From a virus, in the IMG/VR virus record IMGVR_UViG_3300019487_000006, positions 1-64,000 of that record: a stretch of 64,000 nucleotides of DNA, one strand, 5' to 3'. Every line of letters starts with the position of its first letter. The stretch's first letter is position 1. Shown here one piece after another: positions 14,761 to 62,620 of this stretch. The translations under genes and the position numbers were made by a program. The notes below the pieces were generated by a model that was given only the letters and a program-made list of their open reading frames with translations, made no database searches and was not told the origin of the DNA.

Positions 14761-15022
14761 CATTATAAAGAAGGAAAATCGACATTTTTATACACGTTTT
14801 AGTTATAACGATTTAGCATCTTACACGTCTGCGTATTATGACACCTGCGACAATGTTGCTCCATTTCGTTTACTTATCTTTGCTGATGGAACTGGGGGAC
14901 AGTGGTGGCTCGAAGGTGAGAGAAACTGGTATCGCTGTGATCCATTCGAGACTGCCATTCTCAAACGGCAACTGGACATAAAGGAGTCATATGACAGGGA
15001 CGAGCAAGGAACCAAACCATGA
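14750..15022 (+). CDS. hypothetical protein (tandem paralog B)
   Basis: GQWWLEGERNWYRCDPFETAILKRQLDIKE parallels 14545..14760. Confidence 0.45.
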   Translation: MIVDIIKKENRHFYTRFSYNDLASYTSAYYDTCDNVAPFRLLIFADGTGGQWWLEGERNWYRCDPFETAILKRQLDIKESYDRDEQGTKP

Positions 15023-16223
15023 CTTTATCGACCTTTATCTTCACCATACCGGTGAATCTGAGGTCCCGCAGCAGTTCCATTTGTTTGCGTGCCTCTCGCT
15101 GCTAGCTGCGTCCGTCGCCGACCGGGTCTGGTTGGTACGTGACGACGGTGGGACACGTATCTACCCCAATCTCTATGTATACCTGATCGGTCCATCTGGT
15201 AGTGGGAAGGAAAAGGCGATTACCACCGCCGCTCGGTTCGCGGACGGCTACCCCAAAATTGGCTTATTCATGTCTACCGGGGTTACTAAGCAGTACCTCA
15301 TCGACCACCTTTGTCGTCAACCATGCGACGACAAGCCCCATCCCAACATTCTGTACCTCGTCACCGAGGAGTTGGGCATGGCGATCCCATCCAAGGAGTT
15401 AGGGAAGGAACTGATAAAGTTCATGACTGGGCACTACATCCGGTCTGGGTTGACCAGTTATGAAGGGACACGTATGCATGGGCAGAAAACCATCAAGGAC
15501 CCATCCCTCAACTGGTTGGCCGGTACTACCGATGAATGGTTGACGAAGGCGGTCGACCGTGATGCGATTGAGGGAGGGTTTTTTGCGCGAGTCCTCTCAG
15601 TACGTGGGAAGCGTTCTGGGGATGTTCGATTCGCAGATATGGTCTACCCACAAGACCGTGAACAAATTAGACACGTCTTACAGCAACGTATTGAGGCGTA
15701 TTCAACAGTGACGTTCCAGTTTACGAAATCGAAGGAAGCCGCTGAATATTATAAGGAATGGTATGAGTCTCCGACCATGCGACCGTCACCCAATGACAAA
15801 CTGATGGAACCTGCGTTTAACCGAAGTGATGAAATGGTCCACCGCCTCGCGATGATCCTGAAGCTGTCCTCTATGAACGAATCGATGCTGCCTGGGTATC
15901 TCACCAGTGTCCAGATCGAGCAACCATTTTTCGAGGAAGCTGTCAAGTTTTGGGACGGTGTCTTGCAAGATATTCCACACACCATTCGTCAAGCCGCTGC
16001 CACAAAAGAGAGTGCTGAAGTCGAGAATGTCGCAGAAATCATCAAGCGTCTCAAGGTGTTAGATCATTCAACCTTACTCCGACGGTGTGGGAGTCGTGGA
16101 ATGAACGCGGACCAGGTGAAGGTTGCGTTGAGGACCCTCACCGAGCAATTAGACGTGGAAGCCGGGGTTGAGCAAACCGCGCCCGGTCATACCAAGCGTG
16201 TGTATAAATGGGTTGGGACGTGA
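14991..16223 (+). CDS. DUF3987-like P-loop NTPase (replication-associated, putative)
   Basis: RBS AAGGAG. Walker A YLIGPSGSGKE. LYLVTEELG Walker B-like. GGFFARVL resembles DUF3987/YfjI-like proteins. Confidence 0.45.
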   Translation: MTGTSKEPNHDFIDLYLHHTGESEVPQQFHLFACLSLLAASVADRVWLVRDDGGTRIYPNLYVYLIGPSGSGKEKAITTAARFADGYPKIGLFMSTGVTKQYLIDHLCRQPCDDKPHPNILYLVTEELGMAIPSKELGKELIKFMTGHYIRSGLTSYEGTRMHGQKTIKDPSLNWLAGTTDEWLTKAVDRDAIEGGFFARVLSVRGKRSGDVRFADMVYPQDREQIRHVLQQRIEAYSTVTFQFTKSKEAAEYYKEWYESPTMRPSPNDKLMEPAFNRSDEMVHRLAMILKLSSMNESMLPGYLTSVQIEQPFFEEAVKFWDGVLQDIPHTIRQAAATKESAEVENVAEIIKRLKVLDHSTLLRRCGSRGMNADQVKVALRTLTEQLDVEAGVEQTAPGHTKRVYKWVGT

Positions 16224-16260: not shown

Positions 16261-16332
16261 TTTAGCAAACTTGCGTAAAAATGGCATATTTATACAAGTT
16301 TGCTAAACTAAATTTAGCTAATATGCCATTTT
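16261..16332. terminator. AT-rich convergent intergenic element with two interleaved perfect 13-bp inverted repeats
   Basis: TTTAGCAAACTTG (16261..16273) pairs with CAAGTTTGCTAAA (16295..16307). AAAATGGCATATT (16278..16290) pairs with AATATGCCATTTT (16320..16332). It lies between convergent genes. Confidence 0.4.
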
Positions 16333-22086: not shown

Positions 22087-22116
22087 AGTATAGGTAGAGT
22101 TACGTAGACGTGTCAA
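22087..22116 (-). promoter_or_regulatory. sigma70-like promoter A (TTGACA-N18-TATACT) with CTACGTA in the spacer
   Basis: - strand reads TTGACAcgtctacgtaactctaccTATACTgtacgtGAGGGGGGactgagATG. Confidence 0.45.
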
Positions 22117-31565: not shown

Positions 31566-31594
31566 AGTATACGTAACTCTACGTATTCTTGCAA
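31566..31594 (-). promoter_or_regulatory. sigma70-like promoter B (TTGCAA-N17-TATACT) with TACGTAG in the spacer
   Basis: - strand reads ccTTGCAAgaatacgtagagttacgTATACTagggtttagcGGAGGGGAG...GTG(31529). Confidence 0.45.
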
Positions 31595-40210: not shown

Positions 40211-40238
40211 TATATACGTACTCCTACGTAGATTGCAA
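40211..40238 (-). promoter_or_regulatory. sigma70-like promoter C (TTGCAA-N16-TATATA) with CTACGTA in the spacer
   Basis: - strand reads ccTTGCAAtctacgtaggagtacgTATATAtgaaaaag. Confidence 0.4.
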
Positions 40239-42982: not shown

Positions 42983-43608
42983 CAGCGACCTATCATGGCT
43001 CTAGGCACGCGAGGATATTGTTTCGGCATCGGTGGCGTCAGGTCCGGGTTACGGGGAAGCTGTACCTCCTGAGGACGGGTCGCCCGCATCTGGGCTACAA
43101 GATGTTTCCGTCCGCATGAGTCGGACCCATCTGCTGGGGGCGGACAAAATTGCTGTCCTTTCGTGACCGGCACGAAGTAGCGATGACAATACTGACACTC
43201 AGATTGGTCCGGCGGAGGACTTTCCAGTGCGGCGACCGTGGCATCTGTCCACGGCCCCAAGGTATCTGCGACGGCCCCCTGCTCGCGGGCTCGAAGGATT
43301 GCGGACATGATGAATGAGGTGACTGGGCGTTGCGTATCCTTCGCAAGTTGGTGAATCAGATCACGGTGTTCAGGGTCGAGACAACTCACAATCATTCGGC
43401 AGGCGTCTTCGATGTTGGTGGGGGATACTGGGATCGGTGGAGTCAGCGCGACATTGGCTGCCGCCTCCTCCATTAGTTGCTGTACGATAGTCGCGAAGTG
43501 CCGTTTGGGGCTTTTCCCCGGCAGCGCCTCCATCCGTTCACGGGCAATCCTGACCCACGACTCCGGTACTTCCAACATGACCAGTTCACGACCAGCAGGT
43601 TCAGACAT
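42982..43608 (-). CDS. hypothetical protein with C-terminal zinc ribbon
   Basis: ATG 43608 lies 6 nt after GGAGGA (ORF track 42982..43623). CQYCHRYF...CPP...SCGRKH. Confidence 0.45.
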   Translation of the reverse strand: MSEPAGRELVMLEVPESWVRIARERMEALPGKSPKRHFATIVQQLMEEAAANVALTPPIPVSPTNIEDACRMIVSCLDPEHRDLIHQLAKDTQRPVTSFIMSAILRAREQGAVADTLGPWTDATVAALESPPPDQSECQYCHRYFVPVTKGQQFCPPPADGSDSCGRKHLVAQMRATRPQEVQLPRNPDLTPPMPKQYPRVPRAMIGR

Positions 43609-43628
43609 GGTGAGTCCTCCCATTCGTA

Positions 43629-50274: not shown

Positions 50275-50460
50275 TTAACGTACCTCGTATCTCCCTCGAC
50301 TGTCAAGTAAATAGAAACATCTCCACGAGTTGCCGAACGTCAAGGCCCAAATCAAGAAGTTTAGGATTCGTAACATGTCCTCATGTCCCACGTCATTGTC
50401 GTGTATATGAACTACATTAACCCATACACCTGACAATGTCTTATTAGTTGATTCGTTCAT
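50275..50460 (-). CDS. hypothetical protein
   Basis: 61 aa. The start overlaps the HNH stop (ATGA). Confidence 0.35.
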   Translation of the reverse strand: MNESTNKTLSGVWVNVVHIHDNDVGHEDMLRILNFLIWALTFGNSWRCFYLLDSRGRYEVR

Positions 50461-51086
50461 TTATTCTTTCTCTTGTAGCGTTTCGACTGTTCATTATTAC
50501 AAACAATACAGTACGAATCACCGGTCTTGGGAATGATTCGTCGATTTCCTTCATACGGATGTCCATGAACACAAACAGTTTTAATAGTACGTTCCTTTCG
50601 ACGCATTAGTTTCCTCTTAACTTTCTCTCTAATACACACACGGCAACGTATTCTTCCATTACTCAAAATTTTTATAGTTTCCGTAGTTCTACGATGACCA
50701 TTTCGACAAAATAACGAACGCCAAACACCATATGGTTTTTGAGAAATACCAGCAAAATATCTTCTCACGTTCTCTTGAGATGTAACCGGTTCTAAATGAT
50801 CTGGATTAACACATAATGTTGTCGAACATAAATGATCCAATACTAAACCATCTGGAATTGGTCCTTTCATCTGTTCATAGAAGAATCTATGAGATTTCAC
50901 GCACTTCTTATTTACAACAAGACAACCATAAAATGGTCTCGCTCGTTTTGTCTCTGTGGTGTGATGACCTGTCGTGCTGCCCTGCCAAATCCAACATCCA
51001 CTCACTCCATCAGGAAATTTTACTCTCCCCACCAAGCGATATAGTGACTCTGGTAAATCCGGGATAATCATACTTAATACCCCCAT
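50457..51086 (-). CDS. HNH homing endonuclease with two C-GH-C-C zinc-finger repeats (free-standing)
   Basis: CWIWQGS...SHRFFY...VLDHLCSTTLCVNPDHLEPVTSQEN. Repeats CRNGHRR...GRIRCRVC and CVHGHPY...GDSYCIVC. Confidence 0.8.
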   Translation of the reverse strand: MGVLSMIIPDLPESLYRLVGRVKFPDGVSGCWIWQGSTTGHHTTETKRARPFYGCLVVNKKCVKSHRFFYEQMKGPIPDGLVLDHLCSTTLCVNPDHLEPVTSQENVRRYFAGISQKPYGVWRSLFCRNGHRRTTETIKILSNGRIRCRVCIREKVKRKLMRRKERTIKTVCVHGHPYEGNRRIIPKTGDSYCIVCNNEQSKRYKRKNK

Positions 51087-51234
51087 TTTTTGTGACGTTT
51101 ATTTATACCATATTGTGAACTTTTTATCCAAAAATTTTTAAATTTTTCATGAGGGGTCCAGCGCGCCTCTCGCATAGTGGGCACCTTGTGAACCAGGGGG
51201 CCGAATGCACATGTGCACGCGCACATACACACAA

Positions 51235-51400
51235 CTACGTATACGTAGATATACATACGTATATACACTTGTACGTAGAACTGCATAGGCATTTGTACGT
51301 GTACGTCGCCATGCGTACGTAGAACCTGGTATCATACAACTACGCCTCGGTGGAATTGCATATGCAAGTATATATACGTATCATACGTACAACTACTTAG
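51235..51400. repeat. ACGT/TACGTA-rich repeat tract in the divergent control region
   Basis: Nine ACGT cores between 51237 and 51389. GTACGTAGAAC is duplicated at 51271..51281 and 51315..51325. Perfect palindrome TTGCATATGCAA at 51356..51367. Confidence 0.7.
51356..51384 (+). promoter_or_regulatory. sigma70-like promoter (TTGCAT-N17-TATCAT) facing the + strand early block
   Basis: TTGCATatgcaagtatatatacgTATCATacgtac has the same acgTATnnT context as promoters B and C. Confidence 0.4.
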
Positions 51401-51429
51401 GTCTCCTCACTGATCCAACGACCACGTCC

Positions 51430-51563
51430 ACAACCCCTTGAGAACGTTACCTTTTCGTAACATTGTGTTACCTTCGTGAAAGACGTGTTACCTCACGGTG
51501 ACACCGTGAATCCTTTTTGGGCGTATCTAAACAGATACTTCCTGTTATGTGTCAAGGGGTTGT
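51430..51563 (+). promoter_or_regulatory. operator/leader element: three phased GTTACCT repeats bracketed by a 12-bp inverted repeat
   Basis: GTTACC at 51446, 51467 and 51487 (20-21 bp spacing). ACAACCCCTTGA (51430..51441) pairs with TCAAGGGGTTGT (51552..51563). 15-bp palindrome CACGGTGACACCGTG at 51494..51508. Confidence 0.45.
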
Positions 51564-51651
51564 AGGTTGGGGCTCCAGTGGCATGCGGTGTGCATCTTAG
51601 GGGGTAGGCAGGCGCGGCGATCAGGCCGAGTCAACCAGGGAGGGTGATATA

Positions 51652-54091: not shown

Positions 54092-55126
54092 ATGAAAGTC
54101 ACAGTTGAACAAGCGGAGGTGTTGATAACGTCCTGTATGAAACGGGGGAAGCCGGTCACGTTGCTCGGCCCCGCCGGATGCGCGAAAACCGCGCTTTTCA
54201 TGCAGGTGGCAAAAAAGCTGGGGTATCACTGTCTAGTATTCCATCCGGTCACAAGTGACCCCACAGACTTCAAAGGCTTTCCCTGGATTAGTGAGGACAA
54301 ACAAAGCGCGGACTTCGTGCCGTTCGGAGAGTTTGGGCGGTTACTATCCGCGACGGAACCGACACTGGCGTTTTTTGACGACTTGGGCCATGCTACCAAA
54401 GCCGTACAAGGGACGCTCATGCAACCGGTACACAAGCGGACGTTGAACGGCCACGTTATCCCTGAGTGTGTCCGGTTCGGCTTTGCTTCCAACCGGCGGG
54501 AGGACAAGGCAGGCGTTGAGGGGATTATTGAGCCGTTGCTGTCCAGGTGTCATGGCGTCTTCGACATTGTGCCGGATACCGACTCCTTTGCGGCGTGGTG
54601 GATGCGGGAGAATAAACCCCAGGAAGTGATCGGGTTCCTCAAGTTCCGCCCCGAATTCCTCTACAGCACGGACAAAAAACATGCGATGTATAATTTCCCG
54701 TGTTTCCGTACGTGGGAGGCCGTAGGCGATTGGCTGGCCGCCGACCTTCCTGCATCCCTCGAAAAGACAGCCTACTGCGGAGCCGTGGGCGAGGGGGCAG
54801 GCACGGAGTTTTTCGCCTACCTGAAAATTTACCGTGAAATCCCCGATGTGGACGAAGCCCTGGCCAACCCCGACAAGGCCCCGATTCCAACCAATGCGTC
54901 TATCTTGTGGGCGTTTACCACGGCGTTCGCGTACCGTGCGAGCCGTAAAACCTTCCCGTCTATCGCCACGTATATTGACCGGTTGGCGAAGGCTAACAAA
55001 GAAGAACAAGCAGTCTATTTGTTCAAGGGCGCGTATACCCGTTGCAAGGAAATCGAACGAGCGGCGGAGTTTTCCAAGCTGGCGAGTTCCAGGATAGGAA
55101 AACTTATCACGCCGAGCGGAGAGTAA
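54092..55126 (+). CDS. MoxR/CobS-like AAA+ ATPase
   Basis: Walker A LLGPAGCAKT. Walker B LAFFDDLG. About 340 aa, as for AAA_5-type ATPases. Confidence 0.7.
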   Translation: MKVTVEQAEVLITSCMKRGKPVTLLGPAGCAKTALFMQVAKKLGYHCLVFHPVTSDPTDFKGFPWISEDKQSADFVPFGEFGRLLSATEPTLAFFDDLGHATKAVQGTLMQPVHKRTLNGHVIPECVRFGFASNRREDKAGVEGIIEPLLSRCHGVFDIVPDTDSFAAWWMRENKPQEVIGFLKFRPEFLYSTDKKHAMYNFPCFRTWEAVGDWLAADLPASLEKTAYCGAVGEGAGTEFFAYLKIYREIPDVDEALANPDKAPIPTNASILWAFTTAFAYRASRKTFPSIATYIDRLAKANKEEQAVYLFKGAYTRCKEIERAAEFSKLASSRIGKLITPSGE

Positions 55127-55127
55127 C

Positions 55128-55349
55128 TTGATCGTAGGTAGACTTTTAGACACGGTTGAGCGTGAGGGTGTTTGCCAATGCGGTCACTCCTACCTCTTTC
55201 ACCATAAAGCCGTATCGGAAGGTGGGGCACAAGTTGTGCTTAGATGGTGTGTCGGTCAATCCATTACCAGGAGCTTTGGCTGTGTTTGCAAGAAGTTTCG
55301 CTACTCTCGCTTCAACACGGTAAAGGCCGCTCTACGTGGGGAAATATGA
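55128..55349 (+). CDS. small Cys-rich protein (TTG start?)
   Basis: 73-aa ORF. CQCGH...CVCKKF. The start codon is uncertain. Confidence 0.3.
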   Translation: MIVGRLLDTVEREGVCQCGHSYLFHHKAVSEGGAQVVLRWCVGQSITRSFGCVCKKFRYSRFNTVKAALRGEI

Positions 55350-55508
55350 GACAGGTAGACTATGAAGACGGCTGGTGTACGTACACGCTCCGTTTGGTGG
55401 ATGTTTTGGTAAAGGGTTATGGTCTGACGGTGGTATGAAGTGCGGGTGCTGTAAGTTTGTTTATAGTCCAGTCGAAACAATCAAGGCAGTATTTGACGGG
55501 AGGGACGA

Positions 55509-56357
55509 ATGAACATCAAAGACCACGCCATGCTTGCCAGTCTCAACCTCAAAGTGTGGACTGCGAGGAAGTACGATAAGGCCGCGAGTGATGCAGTGGC
55601 CACTGTCTACAGTGTCACGACAAAGGCGGGCCGGTACAATAAAAACCTTCTCCCGCAAGGCAGCAAGCAGTACGAAGTGATCTTGACGATTATGGGTGAA
55701 GCGCGAAACGCATTTTATCACTATACGCTCCCCTGGACGCAGGACGGGGCCAGGATTCTACCGGCCACTGCGTTCATGGACTTCACGGACAGTATGAACA
55801 AGCACGAAGCAGCGTTTAGTCCAGCCGTGGCACAATTCATTCAGGAATTTCCAATGATGGTTACGAACGCACAGCACAACTTAGGCACCTTGTTCAAGCC
55901 GCAGGACTACCCCGCCGATATTGCGGACAGGTTCGGTTTTAAGGTGTCCATCTTTCCATTACCGGACGCTGGGGATTTTCGAGTCGGGTTGAACGTCGAG
56001 GAAGTGCAGGACATACGCGACAGTATCACGGCGAACGTGCAAGAGGCGGTCAAGGACGCTATGCAAGAGCTATACCAACGGTTGTTTGATACCGTCGCGC
56101 ATATGGCCGACTGTCTCAGTGATGCGGATAAAATCTTTCGAGACAGTCTAGTGGACAATCTTGTACGGGTTTGTAAGGTGTTGCCAAAGCTGAATCTCAC
56201 AAACGATGTTCGTTTACACGATCTACACAAGGAAGTCACGCAGCACTTGCTTGGACACTCCCCAAAAGACTTGCGAACGGACAAGGTGTTAAGGAAACAA
56301 GTAGCTGACAAGGCGGTTGAGTTGCAGAAAAAAATGCAAACCATGATGGGGCAGTAG
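55509..56357 (+). CDS. DUF3150-like protein
   Basis: LNLKVWTARKYDKAAS near the N-terminus. It sits between the MoxR-like ATPase and VWA genes, as in cobS-DUF3150-cobT-like triads. Confidence 0.5.
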   Translation: MNIKDHAMLASLNLKVWTARKYDKAASDAVATVYSVTTKAGRYNKNLLPQGSKQYEVILTIMGEARNAFYHYTLPWTQDGARILPATAFMDFTDSMNKHEAAFSPAVAQFIQEFPMMVTNAQHNLGTLFKPQDYPADIADRFGFKVSIFPLPDAGDFRVGLNVEEVQDIRDSITANVQEAVKDAMQELYQRLFDTVAHMADCLSDADKIFRDSLVDNLVRVCKVLPKLNLTNDVRLHDLHKEVTQHLLGHSPKDLRTDKVLRKQVADKAVELQKKMQTMMGQ

Positions 56358-56367
56358 GGAGGTACAA

Positions 56368-57594
56368 ATGGGAATGACCCCCGCCGATAAAATTAAACGG
56401 GCACGTATCCGGTTATTGCTCACTCAACCGTTTTTCGGCAACCTCGCGTGTCGGATGGAAGTGATGGAAAACCCCGCTGTGACTTCTACAATGGGCACGG
56501 AGGGCCGCAATCTGTTTTACAACGCGAAGTTTGTGGATACTCTGACCCAAGAGGAATTGATCGGCGTAATTTGTCACGAAGTTTTACACTGTGCGAACCT
56601 GCATCATTTACGGGTCGGACGTAGGCATCCGGTTGTGTGGAACCTCGCCTGTGACTACGCCATTAACCCGACCATCGAAGAGAATAACTTCAAGCTCCCG
56701 AAGGATTGCCTACTCGATCAAAAGTATAAGGGATGGGCAGCGGAACGGATTTACGATGACTTACTTAATAGTGGTAAGGTGAAAATTATCACTGTGACCG
56801 TCTCCGGTGGGCAAGGCGATGGACAGTCTGGTGAAAGTGAACAGGGGGATAGTTCAGTCGCAGGTGGTACCGCTGTGAACAAAGACGGAACGCCAATTGT
56901 CCCGTCCTGTGGGGAAGTGTTGCCGGTATCGGGCACCGAGGAACAAAAAAAGCAGGACGGCGAGGATTGGACGGTGGCCGTGCGACAAGCCGCCTTGTCC
57001 GCAAAGATGCAGGGCAAACTACCGGCTAACTTAGCTGGCTGGATTGACAAATTAGTAGAACCGGTGGTGGACTGGAAGGGGCTCCTATGGGAGTTCGTTG
57101 AAACAGTGACAAACCAAGACGACTATACATACAACCGACCCAACTCACGGTACATCGGGTACGACCTGTTCCTTCCGACCATGCACGGGGAGGCGTGTCC
57201 GTCCTTGGCAGTGACGATTGATACCTCAGGCAGCGTGTCCGAGCAAGAGTTGACCGCGTTCCTGTCTGAGCTAAACAATCTGGTCGAAACGATGCGGCCA
57301 GAACGGACGTTTATCCTCGACTGTGACGCGACGGTACATAAGTGTCGCGTGTTTGAGCGAGGCGAGAGTTTGTTCAAAGACGGAAAGTGGAAAACCTACG
57401 GACGTGGTGGAACGGATTTCCGGCCCCCCTTTGATTATATTCAGAAACACCGCCTGGATATAGCGTGTCATATCTACTTGACTGACATGCAAGGGCCGTT
57501 CCCGACCACGCCGCCGCCGTACCCGTGTCTGTGGATTGCCACGACGGACACGAAGGCTCCATTTGGGCAAACAGTCAAGTTAGATTTACGGTGA
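56368..57594 (+). CDS. DUF2201-type putative metallopeptidase + VWA-like domain protein
   Basis: ICHEVLHCANLHH (HExxH). LAVTIDTSGSVS is a MIDAS-like VWA motif. Confidence 0.75.
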   Translation: MGMTPADKIKRARIRLLLTQPFFGNLACRMEVMENPAVTSTMGTEGRNLFYNAKFVDTLTQEELIGVICHEVLHCANLHHLRVGRRHPVVWNLACDYAINPTIEENNFKLPKDCLLDQKYKGWAAERIYDDLLNSGKVKIITVTVSGGQGDGQSGESEQGDSSVAGGTAVNKDGTPIVPSCGEVLPVSGTEEQKKQDGEDWTVAVRQAALSAKMQGKLPANLAGWIDKLVEPVVDWKGLLWEFVETVTNQDDYTYNRPNSRYIGYDLFLPTMHGEACPSLAVTIDTSGSVSEQELTAFLSELNNLVETMRPERTFILDCDATVHKCRVFERGESLFKDGKWKTYGRGGTDFRPPFDYIQKHRLDIACHIYLTDMQGPFPTTPPPYPCLWIATTDTKAPFGQTVKLDLR

Positions 57595-57608
57595 AGGGAC
57601 AGAGGGCT

Positions 57609-58031
57609 ATGGGTTGCGACATACACTGTATGGTCGAGTATCTCCTTCATTCCACAGAGAAAGGTAAGGGAGAGGTTGTAACGCATTGGTGGCTTAACTT
57701 CGGGGGAGTTATTAGTGTTGATCGTAACTACGTCCTGTTTGCAAAAATGGCCGGTGTTCGTAGGTCAGAGACAGTCAAACCAATGTTTAAGCAGCGCGGA
57801 GTACCTAACGACGTGGGATTGGTGGCGATGGGCATATTAGCTAAAGAGTGGGCCCGCGGTCACTCTCACAGTTGGCTGACTCTAGAAGAATTTGAGTCTG
57901 TGTTGACGAGCTACCAACTAGAAGGGTATGAGTTCGAATTAGACGTTGAATGGCGAGCGATGCTGGCAGCGATGCGGACGTTACAGGATGGAGGACACAC
58001 GGTTCGGCTAATTTTTTGGTTTGACAGCTAG
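57609..58031 (+). CDS. hypothetical protein
   Basis: ATG 57609 follows AGAGGG (ORF track 57525..58031). Confidence 0.45.
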   Translation: MGCDIHCMVEYLLHSTEKGKGEVVTHWWLNFGGVISVDRNYVLFAKMAGVRRSETVKPMFKQRGVPNDVGLVAMGILAKEWARGHSHSWLTLEEFESVLTSYQLEGYEFELDVEWRAMLAAMRTLQDGGHTVRLIFWFDS

Positions 58032-58045
58032 GGAGGATACTGGCG

Positions 58046-58342
58046 ATGCACCTTCAGTTTTTTAGGGGGGTAAGCACCGAGACTTACTACGTCTATTATC
58101 CCACGGAACAAGCGTACGTTCGAATAGCCGACCGTCATGGGGAGTGTTTGACTCCGCCTGATATAGTCAGAACTTTCCCGTTTGACACTCGGAGTGTTTA
58201 CCCCGTTGAGTCGCGGCTTGAGTGGATAATCCTAGCCACTCAATTTTTGAACGAAAACCGTGGCCGAATACTTGCTGTCTCACGCGAGCGCGTTAGGGAC
58301 GAGGCAAAACTAAGGAGGATAAACACGCGATGGAAACTTTAA
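58046..58342 (+). CDS. hypothetical protein
   Basis: RBS GGAGGA. 98 aa. Confidence 0.45.
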   Translation: MHLQFFRGVSTETYYVYYPTEQAYVRIADRHGECLTPPDIVRTFPFDTRSVYPVESRLEWIILATQFLNENRGRILAVSRERVRDEAKLRRINTRWKL

Positions 58343-58875
58343 CCCCCCTGCTCCCATTTACTGAGTCGGTTCCGTCGGTGATAAAGTCTGATGCACGACC
58401 AGACGTGTCGGCCTTTTTTGACCACATCAGGAAGTTAAAAGGTGAGGCTGACGCGGCGGACGAGGAGGTACACAAGATTCAGACTTCGGCGGACGATGCA
58501 AAACGTCCATTTATACAAACATCTAGGCGAATTAACGCGGAGATTCATGAAGCTGAGTATACCGCTCGCCAGTTTGCGCCAGTGACGTGCGGAGACTTAC
58601 TATATTCCGTCAAATCTCTGCACTATGGGCGAAAGCCAAAGATTGCGCGGGGTGCCTTCTATTATAAAGTGTCTGACGTTGAGGCCCGTGTCTCGTTGTC
58701 AGACAGTACGGTATCGTTTATGGTAACTGCCAGCCATGTCGCGCCGACAGGGGAAACTCTCGTACGTGGCGCGGTTCGACGTCGTTTATCTGACTTTACG
58801 GGCAAGGTCGTGGACGGACACCAGATGCTGGCAAAATACTACAAGTGCGAAGTGCGTAAACAGTTAAGGGGGTAA
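58330..58875 (+). CDS. hypothetical protein
   Basis: 181 aa. AAGGAGG upstream. Confidence 0.45.
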   Translation: METLTPLLPFTESVPSVIKSDARPDVSAFFDHIRKLKGEADAADEEVHKIQTSADDAKRPFIQTSRRINAEIHEAEYTARQFAPVTCGDLLYSVKSLHYGRKPKIARGAFYYKVSDVEARVSLSDSTVSFMVTASHVAPTGETLVRGAVRRRLSDFTGKVVDGHQMLAKYYKCEVRKQLRG

Positions 58876-58965
58876 AGGGGGTTGACCATGACTAGACAAG
58901 AATTGATCGCCGCCGTGCGCAGAGTTTAATCTCACATACCAAGACGTTGTAGGGAGTATAAGAAC

Positions 58966-59193
58966 ATGGCCAGACCAAAACTAGACCCCCTTAATAAGCG
59001 TCATTATCACTATGTTTGCCGGTTGTGCGGACAGTCGTTCGGAGAGCACGATGAACTTTCCTGTAATTTCCCGTTCAATGATGTTAAAGGATGTTTTTTT
59101 ACGTGGACTAATCGTGAGGCTCAGGTATTCAGAGTGAAGTGTGCCTTACGCGGTATTACACTACCAAACAAACGAGAACGTACTGTAGATTGA
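58966..59193 (+). CDS. small CxxC protein
   Basis: YVCRLCGQSFGEHDELSC. Confidence 0.4.
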   Translation: MARPKLDPLNKRHYHYVCRLCGQSFGEHDELSCNFPFNDVKGCFFTWTNREAQVFRVKCALRGITLPNKRERTVD

Positions 59194-59194
59194 T

Positions 59195-59344
59195 GGATTA
59201 TCTGGAATTACATCGTGTAACCTATTGATATAAGGCCCAATTATTATTTTACGTGAATCCAAAAATCTGGAATTCATTAGTGTTTTCAAAATGTTACGAG
59301 CCGAGTTATCTAAAACTGGATTATCTGGGTACCCTATCTCTCTC
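59195..59344. repeat. left arm of a large imperfect inverted repeat
   Basis: Shares ordered blocks with the reverse complement of 59478..59631: TAACCTATTGA, AATTATT.TTTTACGTGAATCCA, ATGTTAC, GAGTTATCT, GGGTACCC, TATCTCTCTC. Confidence 0.7.
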
Positions 59345-59436
59345 GGTCGTGTAGGGATGGTGGTGTGGGGGTGTTGTGGTTGGTAGTATATATAATAAAA
59401 TCAAATAGTTAATGAAAAAACACACAAGGCCACCTG

Positions 59437-59457
59437 ACAACGTGTTGTGGTGTGTTT
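59437..59457 (+). repeat. 21-nt direct repeat copy 1 (ACAACGTGTTGTGGTGTGTTT)
   Basis: Identical to 59717..59737, exactly 280 bp away. Copy 1 can pair with the upstream AAACACAC...CCAC. Confidence 0.8.
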
Positions 59458-59477
59458 GTTAGTAGTAGAGAGATTGT

Positions 59478-59631
59478 GAGAGAGATAGAGCATGGGTACC
59501 CTGATAATTCAGAAAACAGATAACTCTGCTGTAACATATTGATACACAAAGTAAAAACGGAAAAGCTGGATTCACGTAAAAAAATAATTTAGCCTGATTT
59601 CAATAGGTTATGAGAAATAATTTTAGATAAC
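59478..59631. repeat. right arm of the large imperfect inverted repeat
   Basis: See the left arm, for example TGGATTCACGTAAAA (59567..59581) against TTTTACGTGAATCCA (59247..59261). Confidence 0.7.
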
Positions 59632-59637
59632 GCAGTC

Positions 59638-59646
59638 TGTGGATAA
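59638..59646 (-). promoter_or_regulatory. consensus DnaA-box sequence (TTATCCACA)
   Basis: + strand TGTGGATAA. Several TTATCT-type near-boxes lie in both arms. Confidence 0.35.
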
Positions 59647-59716
59647 CTAGGGACACATATATTTTTTTATGGTTCGTCCTTCGCTTAAACGAACAGTCAA
59701 AATGCTACGGTACGCT

Positions 59717-59737
59717 ACAACGTGTTGTGGTGTGTTT
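59717..59737 (+). repeat. 21-nt direct repeat copy 2
   Basis: Identical to 59437..59457. It lies about 40 nt upstream of the ATG at 59776. Confidence 0.8.
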
Positions 59738-59775
59738 ACGTTGGGCGTGGTCAGCTCAGGTAGAAGGGAGGCACG

Positions 59776-59922
59776 ATGCGTGATTTACTAGACATGCTTG
59801 GCGGGTGGGTGTGGTTGACGGTGGTAGTTGGGTTCATGCTACTACTGGACATCATCGGGTTTATGCAGCGACGTCGTTGGCGGAACAAACAGTACCCACA
59901 ACGTACTCGTACAAAGGATTAG
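59776..59922 (+). CDS. 48-aa single-TM protein with basic tail (putative)
   Basis: GAAGGGAGG then ATG. MRDLLDMLGGWVWLTVVVGFMLLLDIIGFMQRRRWRNKQYPQRTRTKD, read by hand. Confidence 0.45.
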   Translation: MRDLLDMLGGWVWLTVVVGFMLLLDIIGFMQRRRWRNKQYPQRTRTKD

Positions 59923-59956
59923 TAATATGGTGCTGGAGGCTAGAAAGGAGAAAATC

Positions 59957-60214
59957 ATGGATACTACTCTACGACTGACCACAAAGGCCCGCGTGCGCGG
60001 CCTATTAACACTCCTGGTATTCGCTTGTGCGGTGGTGATACCCCAATCAGGGGACTGCCACCACGACGGGGGCAGCGGAATGTCGCCAGGGGGCTGTACG
60101 ACGCAAATCTGGCAGGGTCCTGGGGGAACCCAACTCTGTACCACCTGCTGCAACGTCCGTAACCCGAATGACTGTACGACGTGGTGTACCCCGTGGGGTG
60201 GTGGAGGAAAATGA
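59957..60214 (+). CDS. secreted (or lipo-) Cys/Thr/Gly-rich peptide, 85 aa
   Basis: AAAGGAG then ATG 59957 (within track ORF 59828..60214). Signal-like RVRGLLTLLVFACAVV. Mature part has 7 Cys and the recurring motif C-T-T/P (GCTTQ, LCTTCC, DCTTW, WCTPW). Confidence 0.5.
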   Translation: MDTTLRLTTKARVRGLLTLLVFACAVVIPQSGDCHHDGGSGMSPGGCTTQIWQGPGGTQLCTTCCNVRNPNDCTTWCTPWGGGGK

Positions 60215-60232
60215 GGTCCAACAAAAAAACCC

Positions 60233-60261
60233 TTGACTTCATGTAAACGAGGTTATAGAGT
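60233..60261 (+). promoter_or_regulatory. possible promoter (TTGACT-N17-TAGAGT) upstream of the LuxR-type gene
   Basis: ccTTGACTtcatgtaaacgaggttaTAGAGTtacgt. Confidence 0.3.
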
Positions 60262-60307
60262 TACGTCTATAGGGTAACTTGTCGGAGTGGTGGTATACGG
60301 AGGTCCT

Positions 60308-60535
60308 GTGAAAAAGAAACGAGCGGTGAAGGCTCTCTCAAAACGTCAGCAACAGATATTAGAGGCGTTCTGGCGCGGTGAGAGTATCACCGATACCGCC
60401 GACCGCTTACACCTCAACCGGAAAACTATTGAGTTGTACCGGCGGAATACCAAGCACAAGTTCAAGGTGGACACGATGGCTGAAGCCGCGCATGCGGCGT
60501 TACGCCTCGGTTGGTTGACGGTCAAGGGGGTCTAA
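60308..60535 (+). CDS. LuxR/GerE-type HTH transcriptional regulator (stand-alone HTH)
   Basis: GTG 60308 lies 4 nt after GGAGG (ORF track 60287..60535). LSKRQQQILEAFWRGESITDTADRLHLNRKTIELYRRNTKHKFKV. Confidence 0.65.
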   Translation: MKKKRAVKALSKRQQQILEAFWRGESITDTADRLHLNRKTIELYRRNTKHKFKVDTMAEAAHAALRLGWLTVKGV

Positions 60536-60537
60536 CA

Positions 60538-60732
60538 GTGGTATGGTGGGCGTTTCAGGTCACGATTCTTTCGATCCAGCTAGCCATTGGCCCGTTTGGG
60601 TCTATAGAGGAATGTCGGATTCAACGGACAAAACTCTTGCGGCAACTCGCAGCCGTGACGGTGCCCTACGAGGTTGAGCGGTGTCGGACGGTAAAAGTGT
60701 GGGAAATCAAACCGGTGGGGAGGCCGCGATGA
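60538..60732 (+). CDS. small hydrophobic-N-terminus protein
   Basis: GTG 60538 follows AAGGGGG (ORF track 60511..60732). Confidence 0.35.
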   Translation: MVWWAFQVTILSIQLAIGPFGSIEECRIQRTKLLRQLAAVTVPYEVERCRTVKVWEIKPVGRPR

Positions 60733-60905
60733 GCGTGAAGGTGTTTTTTCACAACGTATTCGGCTTGCATTGTTGGCATTATACAGGTCTAACGAAATGG
60801 ATTCGACCAGAATGCCATGGTATTAAAGGTCCGCGTACCATTGGGTTTATTGACCGATGCTGCATCTGCAAACAGTCTAAGGCGTTTATGTCTAATGGGT
60901 GGTGA
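60729..60905 (+). CDS. small Cys-rich protein
   Basis: ATG 60729 overlaps the upstream stop. CWHY...PECHG...DRCCICK. Confidence 0.35.
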   Translation: MSVKVFFHNVFGLHCWHYTGLTKWIRPECHGIKGPRTIGFIDRCCICKQSKAFMSNGW

Positions 60906-60909
60906 TGCC

Positions 60910-61248
60910 ATGAGCATGAAGCGTTTGCCAGATGAGCGGTTGCGACAAATTCGCCGTGAATTGGGTAGTTGCAGCTTGGAAGCGGACAGTCGACCAACCC
61001 TGTATGACGAGCTTGATGGGCATATTCGGGCGCTTCAAGCCGACTACGACCGTCTGGCCGAGGCGGTGAAGGCATTGCCTTTATTAGAAGGGAAAATTTG
61101 GTCATGCCGCGAGCAGTCGCGTGACCCGTGGTTATCAGTCTGCTTTGGAACGGAAGGCGACTATCAGGTGTTTGCCAGAAGCTTAACAAACACCGAAGCC
61201 AACGCCCTCGCCGCGCTTCTCAAACTACGGCAGGAGATGGAGGGGTAG
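60910..61248 (+). CDS. hypothetical helical protein
   Basis: ATG 60910 (ORF track 60817..61248). Confidence 0.4.
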   Translation: MSMKRLPDERLRQIRRELGSCSLEADSRPTLYDELDGHIRALQADYDRLAEAVKALPLLEGKIWSCREQSRDPWLSVCFGTEGDYQVFARSLTNTEANALAALLKLRQEMEG

Positions 61249-61710
61249 ATGTCAGCCTTGAAACGCGAAATGATGATTTGGATGCCGCACGCAGGACACC
61301 TCATTGTCTCGCGGGATTGCCAATTTCACCTCAACACATTTGTCAACGGCTACATTATTTCGACGGTCGGTGAATACTGGCCATGCCGTGCAGTACGTGA
61401 GATTCATGCACGGGTTCATGATCTAGCGTGGTTAGAAGAAAACAAGCACCTGCGCGGCGACGACTTCGACTACGCGTACATGAAGAAGTTTGGATTTGAA
61501 ATGATTGGATGCAACCGTCTATACGAAACAATGGTTTTCACGGCCATGAAATCAAAACAAACATGCTGTCCGTACAAAATGGCCGACACAAGCGAAATAG
61601 ACTCTGCTGGATACAACGATGCCGGGAAAGCCTATAAGGGACACCTTGCGATGGTCAAGAAGTATGCTTGCCGCACCATGAAACCCCTAACCCGCACGGC
61701 GCGAGGGTGA
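61249..61710 (+). CDS. hypothetical protein
   Basis: RBS GGAGGGG. 153 aa with GYIISTVGEY...YETMVF. Confidence 0.45.
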   Translation: MSALKREMMIWMPHAGHLIVSRDCQFHLNTFVNGYIISTVGEYWPCRAVREIHARVHDLAWLEENKHLRGDDFDYAYMKKFGFEMIGCNRLYETMVFTAMKSKQTCCPYKMADTSEIDSAGYNDAGKAYKGHLAMVKKYACRTMKPLTRTARG

Positions 61711-61886
61711 TGAGGTATCACATCGTAAAGGACGGTGAATGGGTGCAACCAAGATGGAAGAATTACTATATAAAGTGTTGCGATTGCGGACTCGTTCATG
61801 CGTTGGATTTCAGGTTAATTAAGCGTGGCTGGTTCGTGAGGATTCAATTCCGTGGACGACGCATTGCCAAACGAGGTGGACGATGA
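61710..61886 (+). CDS. small basic CxC protein
   Basis: ATG 61710 overlaps the upstream stop (TGATG). KCCDCGLVH. Confidence 0.35.
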   Translation: MRYHIVKDGEWVQPRWKNYYIKCCDCGLVHALDFRLIKRGWFVRIQFRGRRIAKRGGR

Positions 61887-62620
61887 GTGTCATTATTGAA
61901 CAGATACAAAATCGAATTCGCGTGGGGTATCAACGCACCTTTGCTGACCTGTCACCTGGGTTCGATGAGACAAAAGCTCTAGAGGATATTTGTTGTCTCG
62001 TCAATCACATCGCCACCCTCCAGCGTGAACTGAGCCGTGCGGCTGAGGTAATTGAACGACAAGAGCGTGACCTGATTCGCACCGAAGAGACGATTGATCT
62101 CTTGGAGAACCACCAAGAAGTCAAGGGCGTGGTTCAGGGGTTGCGGGAACAACTGGAAATGGCACAGCGCGAATTGAGCGAGACGAAGGCTATCAACAAA
62201 AGACTGCTTGACGAAAGCCAAGAAGATTTGGAATCTACCGAACGTCAGCTTGGAGAACTAAACGACCAACTCACCGTCGCCCACGCCGACAATGAGAAGA
62301 TGCGGGAATTATTAACTGCCAAAGCACAACAACTACGGAAAGATTCAGCCGCGGCGGAGATTGAAGGAGATTTATCTGCGCCATCGGATGAGCAGTTATA
62401 TACCGCCGTGACTATCGAGACATTTCTTGAGCATTTACCACCCCACCCCGGCTCCGCGATGGTGGAGCGGGTAAAGTGGTTGGAGGAAGGGTTAGAGCAT
62501 GTGAGGAACACAATTAGACGCAGACTTAAGGATTACGGCTGGAAGGATTGGTCTCCTGATATTGTAGAGTGTTTAGCAAAGGCTTGCGACGACTATCTCT
62601 CTCGCGAACCGAATGGGTGA
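61883..62620 (+). CDS. coiled-coil protein
   Basis: 245 aa, long acidic heptad-like helices. Confidence 0.45.
   Translation: MSVIIEQIQNRIRVGYQRTFADLSPGFDETKALEDICCLVNHIATLQRELSRAAEVIERQERDLIRTEETIDLLENHQEVKGVVQGLREQLEMAQRELSETKAINKRLLDESQEDLESTERQLGELNDQLTVAHADNEKMRELLTAKAQQLRKDSAAAEIEGDLSAPSDEQLYTAVTIETFLEHLPPHPGSAMVERVKWLEEGLEHVRNTIRRRLKDYGWKDWSPDIVECLAKACDDYLSREPNG

Follow-up and report, generated by a model that had tools for sequence, protein, structure and literature searches.

The 64-kb window, i.e., the whole stretch of DNA analyzed here, is a complete circular phage genome carrying a gene-free, single-copy non-coding cis element of about 580 bp, in which two long inverted arms, sets of a short motif pointing towards the centre, and several predicted sites for the host protein IHF are arranged around the least stable duplex of the genome. 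We tentatively read this tract as a replication origin that carries iterons, is folded by IHF and depends on phage proteins (a DUF3987 helicase and PolA) instead of DnaA. The sequence-only reading had classified the region as origin- or switch-like: a site of protein assembly is still the class that fits best, whereas the DnaA-based version of the origin did not stand.

The tract had been described as AT-rich, non-coding and placed between co-directional genes, and this was borne out (GC content 0.38 versus 0.53 in the genome). The upstream gene (58966..59193, + strand), the stop of which coincides exactly with the start of the left arm, encodes a small C2H2-like protein of 75 amino acids, rich in Cys and His; in related phages the homologous region is surrounded by small zinc-finger-like proteins of one family, to which the 75-amino acid protein belongs as a divergent member. 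The conserved gene set located downstream, also on the + strand, encodes a 48-amino acid TM peptide (59776-59922), a secreted Cys-rich peptide (59957-60214) and the LuxR-type regulator previously noticed there (60308-60535, with an alternative start at 60287), whose GerE/LuxR domain was recovered with E = 4.6e-11. The phage looks lytic; it belongs to an uncultured lineage whose amino-acid identity with deposited phages does not exceed 33% and which matches none of them at the DNA level, and no close DNA relatives were present in the phage collection searched. No tRNAs were found.

The large imperfect inverted repeat detected by eye proved to be real. Its left arm lies at 59194..59344 (the aligned part starting at 59198) and its right arm at 59478..59647, where the alignment covers 59478-59631 and the arm is prolonged to 59647 by its outermost RTTATC motif, the one that doubles as the DnaA-box match. 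Alignment of the left arm with the reverse complement of the right arm by MAFFT gave 109 identical columns out of 159 (69%), with two gap columns. The collinear pairs include 59198-59261/59567-59630 (64 nt, 81%), 59316-59344/59484-59512 (29 nt, 79%) and, among the shorter ones, the inner pair 59334-59344/59478-59488 (CTATCTCTCTC/GAGAGAGATAG; 11 nt, 100%). This is the longest inverted repeat of the whole window, and no second copy of it exists in the genome. Folded as single-stranded DNA, the segment 59190-59640 reaches -78.6 kcal/mol, as compared with -35.7 +/- 3.9 for shuffled sequences (z = -10.95). All the ordered blocks reported to be conserved between the arms are present: nine exact blocks of 5-15 nt can be recognized (TTATCT, AATTA, TAACCTATTGA, AATTATT, TTTTACGTGAATCCA, ATGTTAC, GAGTTATCT, ATTATC, and GGGTACCC), in addition to the 11-nt inner pair. 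The matches gather into blocks modestly above chance (permutation P = 0.024 and 0.009), and the identity of the arms outside the blocks is 41%. The proposal that such block-wise conservation favors protein-binding sites over a hairpin does not separate the two, because stems and internal loops yield the same picture. Within the genome, the boxes, GGGTACCC, the motif AGATAAC and the 21-mer direct repeat described below occur in the tract only. The 133-bp centre between the arms is asymmetric, with a G-rich island (GGTCGTGTAGGGATGGTGGTGTGGGGGTGTTGTGGTTGG, 59345..59385, + strand) between the left arm and the AT-rich core.

The motif RTTATC recurs along the arms in an iteron-like manner. Three copies are carried by the left arm (59197-59202, 59305-59310, and 59320-59325), exclusively on the + strand, and a mirror set of four is carried by the right arm (59503-59508, 59519-59524, 59626-59631, and 59642-59647), exclusively on the - strand, the two sets pointing towards the centre. 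These seven copies are to be compared with 0.86 expected (P<5e-4, composition-matched Markov simulations), and the tract thereby shows what is typical of iteron-type origins, namely several copies of a short replicon-specific motif. The perfect DnaA-box match (TTATCCACA, 59638-59646, - strand) does exist; it is one of four perfect boxes scattered over the genome and the region's only site with no more than one mismatch. A role of DnaA is not supported by this single box, with no cluster around it and no DnaA boxes with up to one mismatch in the homologous regions of the relatives L010, L011, and L039. The TTATCT-type sequences taken for near-boxes differ from TTATCCACA at two positions or more. 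The box is in fact one variant (GTTATCCACAG) of the RTTATC family, one of its seven copies, and we judged it to be incidental. A DnaA-dependent (oriC-type) origin was therefore rejected, since the box is not conserved and the clustering typical of such origins (TTATNCACA) is not observed. As regards annotation from sequence only, this case calls for caution: a perfect DnaA box lying in an AT-rich repeat region turned out to be no more than one variant, arisen by chance, of a motif specific to the phage.

The core consensus of IHF, WATCAANNNNTTR (PMC10380432), was matched post hoc, after a conserved box had been noticed. Three perfect matches were found in the tract: AATCAAATAGTTA (59399..59411, + strand), which ends at the dyad centre (~59411), TATCAATAGGTTA in the left arm (59218..59230, - strand; mirror position 59598-59610 on the + strand, one mismatch) and TATCAATATGTTA in the right arm (59532..59544, - strand; mirror position 59284-59296 on the + strand, one mismatch). 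The 580 bp of the tract thus contain three of the five perfect matches present in the genome, and its other AT-rich gaps contain none. The homologous regions likewise hold both of the perfect matches of the 21-kb L010 locus and the only one of the 21-kb L011 locus. The three regions together show six perfect consensus sites versus 0.13 expected, a number reached in none of 5000 composition-matched simulations, and just two perfect matches occur outside them in about 150 kb. The site near the dyad also recurs: in L010 it is located at 362-374 (centre ~377), and in L011 a site with one mismatch (2135-2147) spans the centre (2141). In the window, the bend predicted at the central site lies some 15-20 bp off the exact dyad, and the arms need not align in register. 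The predicted sites also provide a hint as to the host clade, which would be one of the IHF-bearing bacteria such as Proteobacteria.

The AT-rich core at the dyad centre (59380..59420) is a candidate DNA-unwinding element. The segment 59380-59419 is the least stable 40-bp duplex of the genome (-1.012 kcal/mol per bp, versus a mean of -1.445 and a standard deviation of 0.103), and both arms rank among its eight least stable stretches. A candidate for the AT-rich unwinding element that adjoins the boxes at oriC-type origins is present at 59380-59419.

The relatives were found via the exonuclease gene (52-65% amino-acid identity). The proteins of the four phages (the window, L010, L011, and L039) are 40-65% identical, and the non-coding tract is kept at the same place in all four, as an AT-rich region upstream of the genes for the small TM peptide, the Cys-rich peptide and the LuxR protein. 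The earlier view that the tract is a real repeat-rich cis element of the phage is supported. The downstream gene order of the window is repeated in L010, and orthologues of the LuxR protein were found in L010, L011, and L041; they lie 0.55-2.2 kb downstream of the region in the window, L010, and L011. The large inverted repeat is present in three of the four versions, with an arm sequence that differs in each phage: the identity between arms amounts to 69% in the window, 68% in L011 and 58% in L010, and the arms are unrelated from one phage to another. Arms that match each other within a phage and are unrelated between phages form the pattern expected if the site and its binding protein co-evolve. 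In L011, the arms (1939-2060/2222-2343; fold z = -8.3) lie at the lowest-GC point of the locus; in L010, the arms (294-325/430-461; z = -3.5) each contain GAGTTCCTT twice (four copies, P = 0.001). L039 shows no long inverted repeat (z = -0.2); it carries GTTACT/AGTAAY motifs in both orientations, and RTTAYY occurs 11 times versus 4.2 expected. The extent of the repeat ranges from 10 to 150 nt among the relatives, and the inner arm ends are the best matched parts (11 exact nt in the window, 13 nt in L010, and in L011 33 nt with a single mismatch). G/C-rich islands lie beside the AT core in all four phages, and in L010 the succession of GC-island, TATATAAT and IHF site appears inverted with respect to the genes on either side. 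The boxes, whose lack of conservation in related phages had been named as a refuting outcome, are mostly not conserved in sequence, whereas the architecture is; what is shared amounts to a box of about 10 nt, CTATTGAT, which is IHF-like and recurs as exact 9-11-mers (best blastn E ~1e-3), and two fragments of the 21-mer, GTTGTGGTGTG at 540-550 in L010, beside a gene start, and CAACGTGTTG at 1841-1850 in L011. An iteron common to the phages (RAGTTMYYT) was suggestive by eye; this motif was picked post hoc and is not significant in every phage, and it is not claimed here.

These features are consistent with the following course of events. Host IHF would bind the predicted sites, a single one near the dyad centre plus a pair in each arm, and bend the DNA sharply, and the bends would bring the mirror-image arms together. 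A phage-encoded protein would then bind the three or four centre-facing copies of the motif in each arm (RTTATC here, other motifs in the relatives), the strain might be relieved by melting of the AT-rich core (59380-59420), and the MCM-like DUF3987 helicase would be loaded at the core, where a PolA-type polymerase would start synthesis; DnaA would play no part. The inverted repeat, the oriented motif arrays, the enrichment of IHF-consensus sites, the stability minimum, the syntenic retention of the architecture and the presence of the helicase and polymerase genes are observed; the binding of IHF, the nature of the protein reading the motifs and the start of replication at the tract are inferred. 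The segment that follows the right arm (59632-59775, with copy 2 of the 21-mer) more probably serves the next gene as its leader or control region than belongs to the origin core. An origin independent of DnaA is plausible because the phage itself encodes a member of the DUF3987 helicase family and a PolA-UDG polymerase (8550-11810). The DUF3987 gene (14991..16223, + strand; Pfam PF13148, 46.9 bits for a cut-off of 27), a candidate replicative helicase gene, is located some 19 kb beyond the tract on the circle; a single-sequence AlphaFold model of its product was unusable (pLDDT 36). The DUF3987 family has been described as consisting of MCM-related replicative helicases with a C-terminal wHTH (PMC4889955), and one member was demonstrated to be a 5'-3' helicase (PMC11724360). 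It is from this family description that we infer an action of the helicase at the tract, and if the tract is an origin, it would show how phages with DUF3987 (MCM-like) proteins choose the site at which replication starts.

At the Escherichia coli oriC, oppositely oriented arrays of initiator boxes, an IHF site (IBS1) and a DUE act together (PMC10380432). The tract resembles it in having opposed box arrays on both sides and an IHF site that would couple them to an AT-rich unwinding element, and in occurring once per replicon; it differs from oriC in its single, non-conserved DnaA box, its repeated motif RTTATC, which is replaced by another in each relative, its arms, which are 150-bp inverted copies, and its five IHF-like sites instead of one or two. 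Other IHF-assisted origins are those of pSC101 and R6K gamma. Non-coding, repeat-rich origins are also known in lytic phages, such as those of the lactococcal phage c2, the 936-type and Streptococcus thermophilus Sfi21-type ori, and the T7 primary origin. Like the tract, these are AT-rich intergenic regions of 300-600 bp that contain repeats, both direct and inverted, and lie within the genome's early or replication part, and the helicase and polymerase are supplied by the phage itself; they were established by plasmid replication or mapping, whereas the tract is known from its sequence, which shows no similarity to theirs.

Several observations speak against an origin. The cumulative GC skew reaches its lowest value near 51-52 kb and does not change course at 59.4 kb, although the skew was found to be uninformative as an origin locator here, being dominated by the gene strand. 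A second repeat-rich non-coding region, at a divergent gene junction (51.09-51.65 kb), has TACGTA repeats with a 10-bp phasing and an AT-rich stretch of its own, and is just as classical a candidate for the origin. Nor is the inverted repeat universal, being absent in L039. The neighbours of the tract encode small zinc-finger-like proteins and a LuxR-type protein, and no initiator gene (Rep, O, or RepA-type domain) was recognized among 91 ORFs of the genome scanned against Pfam or PHROGs.

It is possible, if on the less probable side, that the tract is instead an operator/promoter (switch) region for the operon of the TM peptide, Cys-rich peptide and LuxR genes, the mirrored motifs being bound by the GerE/LuxR protein (60308-60535) or one of the small zinc-finger-like proteins, with IHF looping the DNA. 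The same gene set always lies directly downstream of the region, and IHF-assisted looping is well known at phage control regions such as the Mu operator and lambda pL. The 21-nt direct repeat recognized earlier (ACAACGTGTTGTGGTGTGTTT, + strand) would then be a promoter-proximal or 5'-UTR control element: its two copies (59437..59457, in the centre, and 59717..59737) were confirmed and are unique in the genome even when three mismatches are allowed (expected 0), and the partial third copy, GTGTTGTGGT, is indeed present in the G-rich island (59371-59380). A distance of 38 nt separates the end of copy 2 from the ATG at 59776, and its core GTTGTGGTGTG stands beside a gene start in L010. The GGGTACCC palindromes are found in the tract only, and TAGGGTA(A/C)C is found again upstream of the LuxR gene. 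Against the operator, neither the corresponding conserved positions of the two arms nor the stretch preceding the gene show a sigma-70-like promoter: the promoter scan gave two weak 9/12 matches, i.e., chance level, and a promoter duplicated in the arms was rejected, as the conserved blocks contain no hexamer pairs at legal spacing. A length of 260-580 bp is also large for such an element, the motifs of the tract have no further copies in the genome whereas TACGTA, a motif resembling a regulator site, recurs at several promoter-like gaps, and the flipped centre of L010 is hard to square with a directional central promoter.

A cos- or pac-like terminase site, at which TerS (42982-43623) would bind the mirrored repeats across an IHF bend and the DNA would be cut in or near the G/C-rich island, is unlikely. 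In the cosB of lambda (R3 - I1 - R2 - R1), gpNu1 binds R3 and R2 across I1, and the IHF bend turns R3 and R2 towards one another for binding by the TerS dimer (PMC4856287). The layout of the tract resembles it in outline, with a host IHF site between inverted binding sites of a phage protein; the single copy and the fast sequence turnover are what co-evolution with TerS would produce, a G/C-rich island lies within AT-rich DNA in all four phages, and the L039 contig ends 38 nt past the region. However, cosB covers about 120 bp and adjoins cosN and the terminase genes, whereas the tract, with its symmetric 435 bp and far longer arms, lies within the early co-directional gene block, 14 kb from TerL (43629-45344), and thus does not show the adjacency to terminase genes characteristic of lambda-type cos. 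The three independent assemblies of the phage all span the tract unbroken, with the genes on either side on the same three contigs, and the circle closes elsewhere, so that an assembly break as a sign of physical ends was rejected; nor was a nick site with two-fold symmetry recognized.

Distinctly unlikely, in our view, is that the tract is the loading site of the MCM-related DUF3987 helicase with the IHF-folded mirror iteron arms placing two rings head to head around the AT core. Ring helicases are loaded head to head at the core origins of SV40 and papillomaviruses and at the archaeal oriC, where inverted ORB elements surround the DUE. These origins share with the tract the inverted initiator sites around an AT-rich melting region, and the likeness is an analogy only. 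The centre could flip during evolution without loss of function because it lies between inverted arms, as L010 suggests. If head-to-head loading is true, the tract would be a bacteriophage counterpart of the symmetric origins of the archaeal, eukaryotic and SV40 type; and since, to our knowledge, no origin has been defined for any phage encoding DUF3987, it would be the first one defined for this widespread class of phage replicases.

An element acting at the RNA level, i.e., a hairpin of about 435 nt terminating or insulating the upstream operon or serving as an RNase III target, or else a source of small RNAs, is very unlikely. The whole tract, taken as RNA, does fold far better than shuffled sequences (z = -9.2), the end of the upstream gene falls exactly at the outset of the left arm, and the mismatches of the L011 arms lean towards G.U on the + strand (16 versus 7). 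In the window, however, the G.U-compatible mismatches are balanced (8 versus 7) and transversions dominate, and the L011 bias is approximately that predicted from a G-rich + strand. The arms, centre and tail folded singly (eight sub-regions) gave z values between -0.6 and +1.6, the terminator scan remained at chance level, and no Rfam family was found at E<=1 in 57000-62000; the small-RNA source suggested earlier is not supported, as no part folds better than shuffled sequences. The hairpin is thus disfavored by the lack of a G.U strand bias, of a repeat in L039 (z = -0.2) and of structure in the sub-regions.

There is little probability that the tract has no function of its own and is what remains of local duplications, direct and inverted, or of a foldback or MITE-like insertion, in a duplication-prone spacer. 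The sequence that follows copy 1 of the 21-mer weakly aligns with the 5' UTR, SD and ATG of the gene at 59776, of which it looks like a degenerate copy, L039 has a degenerate copy of the start of its next gene about 243 bp upstream, and the extent of the repeat is variable. Against this reading, the tract is kept in place in four phages with proteins so divergent, and its motifs and IHF-consensus sites are enriched far above the composition-matched expectation. A MITE or foldback element is not supported: there is no second genome copy, the arm ends show no target-site duplication (the flanks TTGATGG and GCAGTCT are not duplicated), and the 22-nt box has no match in IMG/VR, the JGI metagenomes or the GTDB genomes, just as the 21-mer has none in the IMG/VR scan.

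An invertible switch, in which a site-specific recombinase would flip the 133-bp centre, is scarcely credible, even though this centre is short, asymmetric and flanked by inverted repeats best matched at their inner ends, and appears flipped in L010, since no recombinase, invertase or transposase domain was detected in any of the 91 ORFs scanned (Pfam or PHROGs), known recombinase sites are ten times shorter than the arms, and homologous recombination between arms would also yield an evolutionary flip. P1 parS has an IHF site in its middle and, in both arms, boxes for protein binding that become bridged once the DNA is bent. The tract has a similar plan, with a predicted central IHF site and boxes on both arms; it differs from parS in its much longer arms and in belonging to a phage that looks lytic, and an attP or P1 parS-type site is not supported, as Pfam or PHROG scans of the genome detected no integrase, ParA or ParB (nor any RNA polymerase gene).

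As a defined cis site with predicted IHF sites, the tract offers a handle for building replicons, for narrowing down the host clade and for locating the phage's origin or packaging site in metagenome reads. Further loci were sought with exonuclease profiles in IMG/VR and the JGI metagenomes, where only distant ones (up to 34% identity) were found, save one 1.4-kb fragment (60%) too short to reach the region. The DUF2201 gene led to best matches (43%) in unrelated genome contexts (L002 to L005) and was given up as a route to relatives; a neighbouring 181-amino acid protein is an orphan. GTGGTGTG was considered as a Chi-like signal and rejected, showing no enrichment in the regions of the relatives. 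Each arm also contains a short ORF, of 33 amino acids at 59253-59354 (+ strand) and 38 amino acids at 59459-59575 (- strand), and both begin with MNP at the conserved GTGAATCCA; they were judged to be non-coding because their frames diverge via 1-nt indels and their amino-acid identity, which is about 45% by inspection, is lower than the nucleotide identity of 69%.

All the features which the sequence-only reading had described in the non-coding tract at 59195-59760 were found to be present, and the observation itself was confirmed. The tract has a GC content of 0.38, versus 0.53 in the genome as a whole, and forms the longest inverted repeat in that genome: the arms (59198-59344 and 59478-59631) are identical at 109 of 159 columns (69%, two gap columns) when one is compared with the reverse complement of the other, and the fold of the tract as single-stranded DNA reaches -78.6 kcal/mol, versus -35.7 ± 3.9 for shuffles (z = -10.95). 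The ordered blocks reported in the arms were recovered as exact matches (TTATCT, AATTA, TAACCTATTGA, AATTATT, TTTTACGTGAATCCA, ATGTTAC, GAGTTATCT, ATTATC, and GGGTACCC), together with an additional exact inner pair of 11 nt (CTATCTCTCTC/GAGAGAGATAG); identity between the blocks is 41%, and the grouping of the matches into blocks exceeds chance, but only modestly (P = 0.009-0.024). No other 40 bp of the genome are as unstable in duplex form as the repeat centre (59380-59419), and both arms are within the top eight. The short, phage-specific motif RTTATC occurs seven times in the tract versus 0.86 expected (P<5e-4), and since the three copies in the left arm are on the + strand and the four in the right arm on the - strand, every copy is directed at the centre.

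The 21-mer direct repeat likewise has exactly two copies, spaced by 280 bp, with no other site in the genome even when 3 mismatches are allowed, and its core, GTGTTGTGGT, does recur at 59371. The sequence following the first copy resembles a degenerate version of the leader that precedes the next gene, SD and ATG included (59437-59500 vs. 59717-59780), and the segment 59632-59775, including the second copy, is more likely to be the leader of that gene. A similar duplicated gene start is present in L039, a contig from a related phage (9270-9314 vs. 9515-9555). That both phages have, within the non-coding region and 240-280 bp upstream of the next gene's leader and start, a degenerate direct copy of these suggests that local duplication is recurrent here.

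No usable relatives were obtained via the neighboring DUF2201 gene and 181-aa gene. The exonuclease gene located 6.3 kb downstream of the tract has homologs at 52-65% identity, and the contigs bearing these were used for comparison. In L011, a 44-kb contig, the gene order is that of the window (DUF2201, small genes, non-coding gap, GerE regulator, exonuclease, PolA); the gap (1910-2435, GC 0.38) includes the lowest-GC point of the locus and carries inverted arms at 1939-2060 and 2222-2343 (one stretch of 63 nt at 78% and another of 46 nt at 72%; fold z = -8.3), in which identity is again block-wise, one block of 33 nt having a single mismatch. In L010, a 61-kb contig, the 259-bp gap (289-547) carries arms at 294-325 and 430-461 with two copies of GAGTTCCTT per arm (z = -3.5), and is followed, in the same order as in the window, by genes for a small TM peptide, a secreted Cys-rich peptide, and a LuxR-type regulator. 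L039 and L041 originate from the same sample and were joined by synteny; the 407-bp, AT-rich gap of L039, which follows the DUF2201 gene and a small Cys-rich one, has no long inverted repeat (z = -0.2) and shows GTTACT/AGTAAY motifs in both orientations, paired 13 nt apart. In all four versions, a G/C-rich island adjoins an AT core containing TATATA. The arms cannot be aligned between phages (the best blastn matches are ~20 nt at E ~1e-3), whereas the likeness between arms holds within each of the three phages with a repeat; position and architecture are thus conserved, and sequence is not. The tract is a real, lineage-conserved cis element.

The sole box common to the phages, CTATTGAT with its flanks, corresponds in reverse complement to the IHF core consensus WATCAANNNNTTR, which is written TAAnnnnTTGATW in a review (PMC10380432). 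The genome carries five perfect matches versus 1.63 expected, three of these putative IHF sites being inside the tract (59218-59230 and 59532-59544 on the - strand, 59399-59411 on the + strand). One-mismatch mirror copies occur at 59598-59610 and 59284-59296. The only two perfect matches in L010 (362-374 and 531-543) and the only one in L011 (2269-2281) also lie within the gaps. The four regions together contain six sites versus 0.13 expected, a number reached in none of 5000 composition-matched simulations, the consensus having been matched post hoc, after the conserved box had been noticed. Only two matches occur outside these regions in ~150 kb, and the genome's remaining AT-rich gaps, the 51-kb region among them, have none. 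In the window (dyad centre ~59411) and in L010 (~377), a site lies near the centre, and in L011 a one-mismatch site (2135-2147) spans the dyad centre at 2141.

The proposal that the region is an origin or a switch was partly supported, apart from its DnaA component, which is refuted: within the tract, no site other than the perfect box (59638-59646) comes within one mismatch, this box is one of four perfect ones scattered over the genome, and the homologous regions of three relatives have no site with at most one mismatch. The box, of sequence GTTATCCACAG, is no more than the outermost member of the RTTATC motif family. Perfect DnaA boxes (TTATCCACA) as such number 4 in the 64 kb versus 0.48 expected, which 0 of 100 shuffles attain; they are dispersed (29-37, 13958-13966, 26939-26947, and 59638-59646), three of the four being within genes.

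The features of the tract are those of a site designed for folding. In a lytic phage lacking recombinase or partition genes, such a design is known from replication origins, terminase sites, and looped control regions. We tentatively favor an IHF-assisted, iteron-bearing replication origin; the next choice would be a terminase or operator site that is built in this way. The origin is favored because the tract is unique in the genome, oriented iteron-like arrays flank the stability minimum on both sides, the sequence changes in step within each phage, and the phage encodes its own replicative helicase family (DUF3987) and PolA polymerase, so that DnaA would not be needed. DUF3987 proteins are, according to a published description, related to MCM and equipped with a wHTH domain (PMC4889955), and one member was shown to be a 5'-3' helicase (PMC11724360). 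The predicted IHF bends would bring together the two mirror-image arms, which would be loaded with a sequence-specific protein beside easily melting DNA; oriC likewise combines oppositely oriented initiator arrays with an IHF site and a DUE (PMC10380432). Candidate readers of RTTATC are the wHTH of the helicase, the LuxR-type protein, and the small zinc-finger-like proteins.

GC skew, which tracks gene strand, has its minimum near 51-52 kb and shows no inflection at the tract. As an alternative origin, the divergent gap at 51.09-51.65 kb has to be taken seriously: it contains TACGTA repeats phased at 10 bp and an AT-rich stretch, with sequence-level conservation in L039; but it looks primarily regulatory, since TACGTA pairs recur before late genes. 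This palindrome has 21 copies in the genome, seven of which are clustered with 10-bp phasing (51218-51404) in the gap that separates the HNH gene from the first + strand gene (51087-51651), adjoining an inverted repeat (17 nt, 94%) and the palindrome GCACATGTGC. Gaps before late genes, and the one ahead of the LuxR gene, hold TACGTA-N4-TACGTA pairs or TAGAGTTACGTA (22095-22106, 31570-31585, 40215-40230, and 60256-60267), and the array is conserved in L039 (1740-1870). The set looks like the operators of a phage regulator, its 51-kb gap being a rival origin candidate.

That the tract instead serves as a control region for the downstream peptide and LuxR genes is rather unlikely: its fixed position upstream of these genes and the 21-mer are consistent with this role, but consensus scans for promoters and terminators in the tract give chance levels, and the absence of promoters, the size of the tract, and the central module apparently flipped in L010 weaken it. 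A cos/pac-like site, which would follow the same logic as lambda cosB (PMC4856287), seems improbable, as the terminase genes are 14 kb away and three out of three assemblies run through the tract.

The other readings are less likely. An RNA hairpin is very unlikely: there is no Rfam match in the tract at E<=1, the arms, centre, and tail, when each is folded singly, show no advantage over shuffles on either strand (z between -0.6 and +1.6), and the arm mismatches, mostly transversions, show no G.U strand bias (8 vs. 7). A duplication relic is, if anything, less probable, and an invertible switch the least likely. A recombination or transposition element was rejected, since integrase, invertase, transposase, ParB, Rep, and RNA-polymerase domains are absent from the 91 ORFs scanned, the tract is single-copy, and its 22-nt box was not found in IMG/VR, JGI metagenomes, or GTDB genomes; so were coding arms, as, by inspection, the two small ORFs starting at the conserved GTGAATCCA do not stay in frame with each other and have a protein similarity lower than their DNA similarity.

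The GerE/LuxR domain of the LuxR-type gene reported downstream was verified. The order small TM peptide, secreted peptide (8 Cys in that of the window), and stand-alone GerE/LuxR regulator is common to the window (59776-60535) and L010 (795-1861), LuxR orthologs being present in L011 and L041 as well; this trio could be a phage-encoded peptide-signaling or toxin module. The non-coding region of the relatives is surrounded by paralogous, zinc-finger-like small proteins (65-115 aa) with the pattern (F/I)(D/N)LK..xC..(H/Y)G.H ... W.C..CG..F, encoded by at least 10 tandem genes in L011 (1134-4574), at 548-820, 1282-1539, and 2160-2438 in L010, and at 8868-9116 in L039. The 75-aa protein of the window (58966-59193), whose only matches among 1.8 billion representatives are C2H2-like repeats, appears to be a divergent member of this family.

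The phage genome is circular and ~64,027 bp long, the window being nearly all of it. The ENA metagenome contig k141_1478234 (ERZ27251177; 64,168 bp) is 100% identical to the window, its length being that of the genome plus a 141-nt assembly overlap, and bridges the junction from 64000 to 1 by 27 extra bases, the only ones missing from the window; the genome is complete, whether circular, circularly permuted, or terminally redundant. No DNA-level match was found in the deposited phage collection, the best protein identities with cultured phages are 25-33%, and no tRNAs were found in the window. Early and replication functions occupy the + strand from 51652 across the junction to 16223, including the MoxR-type ATPase (54092), the DUF2201/VWA protein (56368), the PD-(D/E)XK exonuclease (2070), the PolA polymerase with an N-terminal UDG-like (UDG-superfamily) domain (8550-11810), the class II RNR (12486), and the DUF3987 protein (14991); structural and packaging functions occupy the - strand from 16335 to 51086, including the portal (41282) and TerL (43629). 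The polymerase has 1086 aa, versus 831-847 aa in the relatives L006, L007, L010, and L011, and thus ~240 extra residues: might these be an insertion or an intein-like segment? In the 111-bp, 28% GC gap where the two gene blocks converge, a near-perfect palindrome (16261-16307; 23-nt arms, 1-nt loop) is probably a bidirectional terminator. The HNH endonuclease gene (50457-51086), which borders the divergent control region, lies where the GC content of the genome is lowest (0.35-0.40) and likely encodes a mobile homing endonuclease. The cassette of MoxR-ATPase and DUF2201 (VWA/metallopeptidase) genes (window, 54092-57594; L039, 5897-8493; L011, 1-954) shows 40-52% identity among relatives versus 52-65% for their exonucleases, and its next-best homologs occur in unrelated phage backbones (L002 and L005), which suggests that it may be a fast-evolving or exchanged module.
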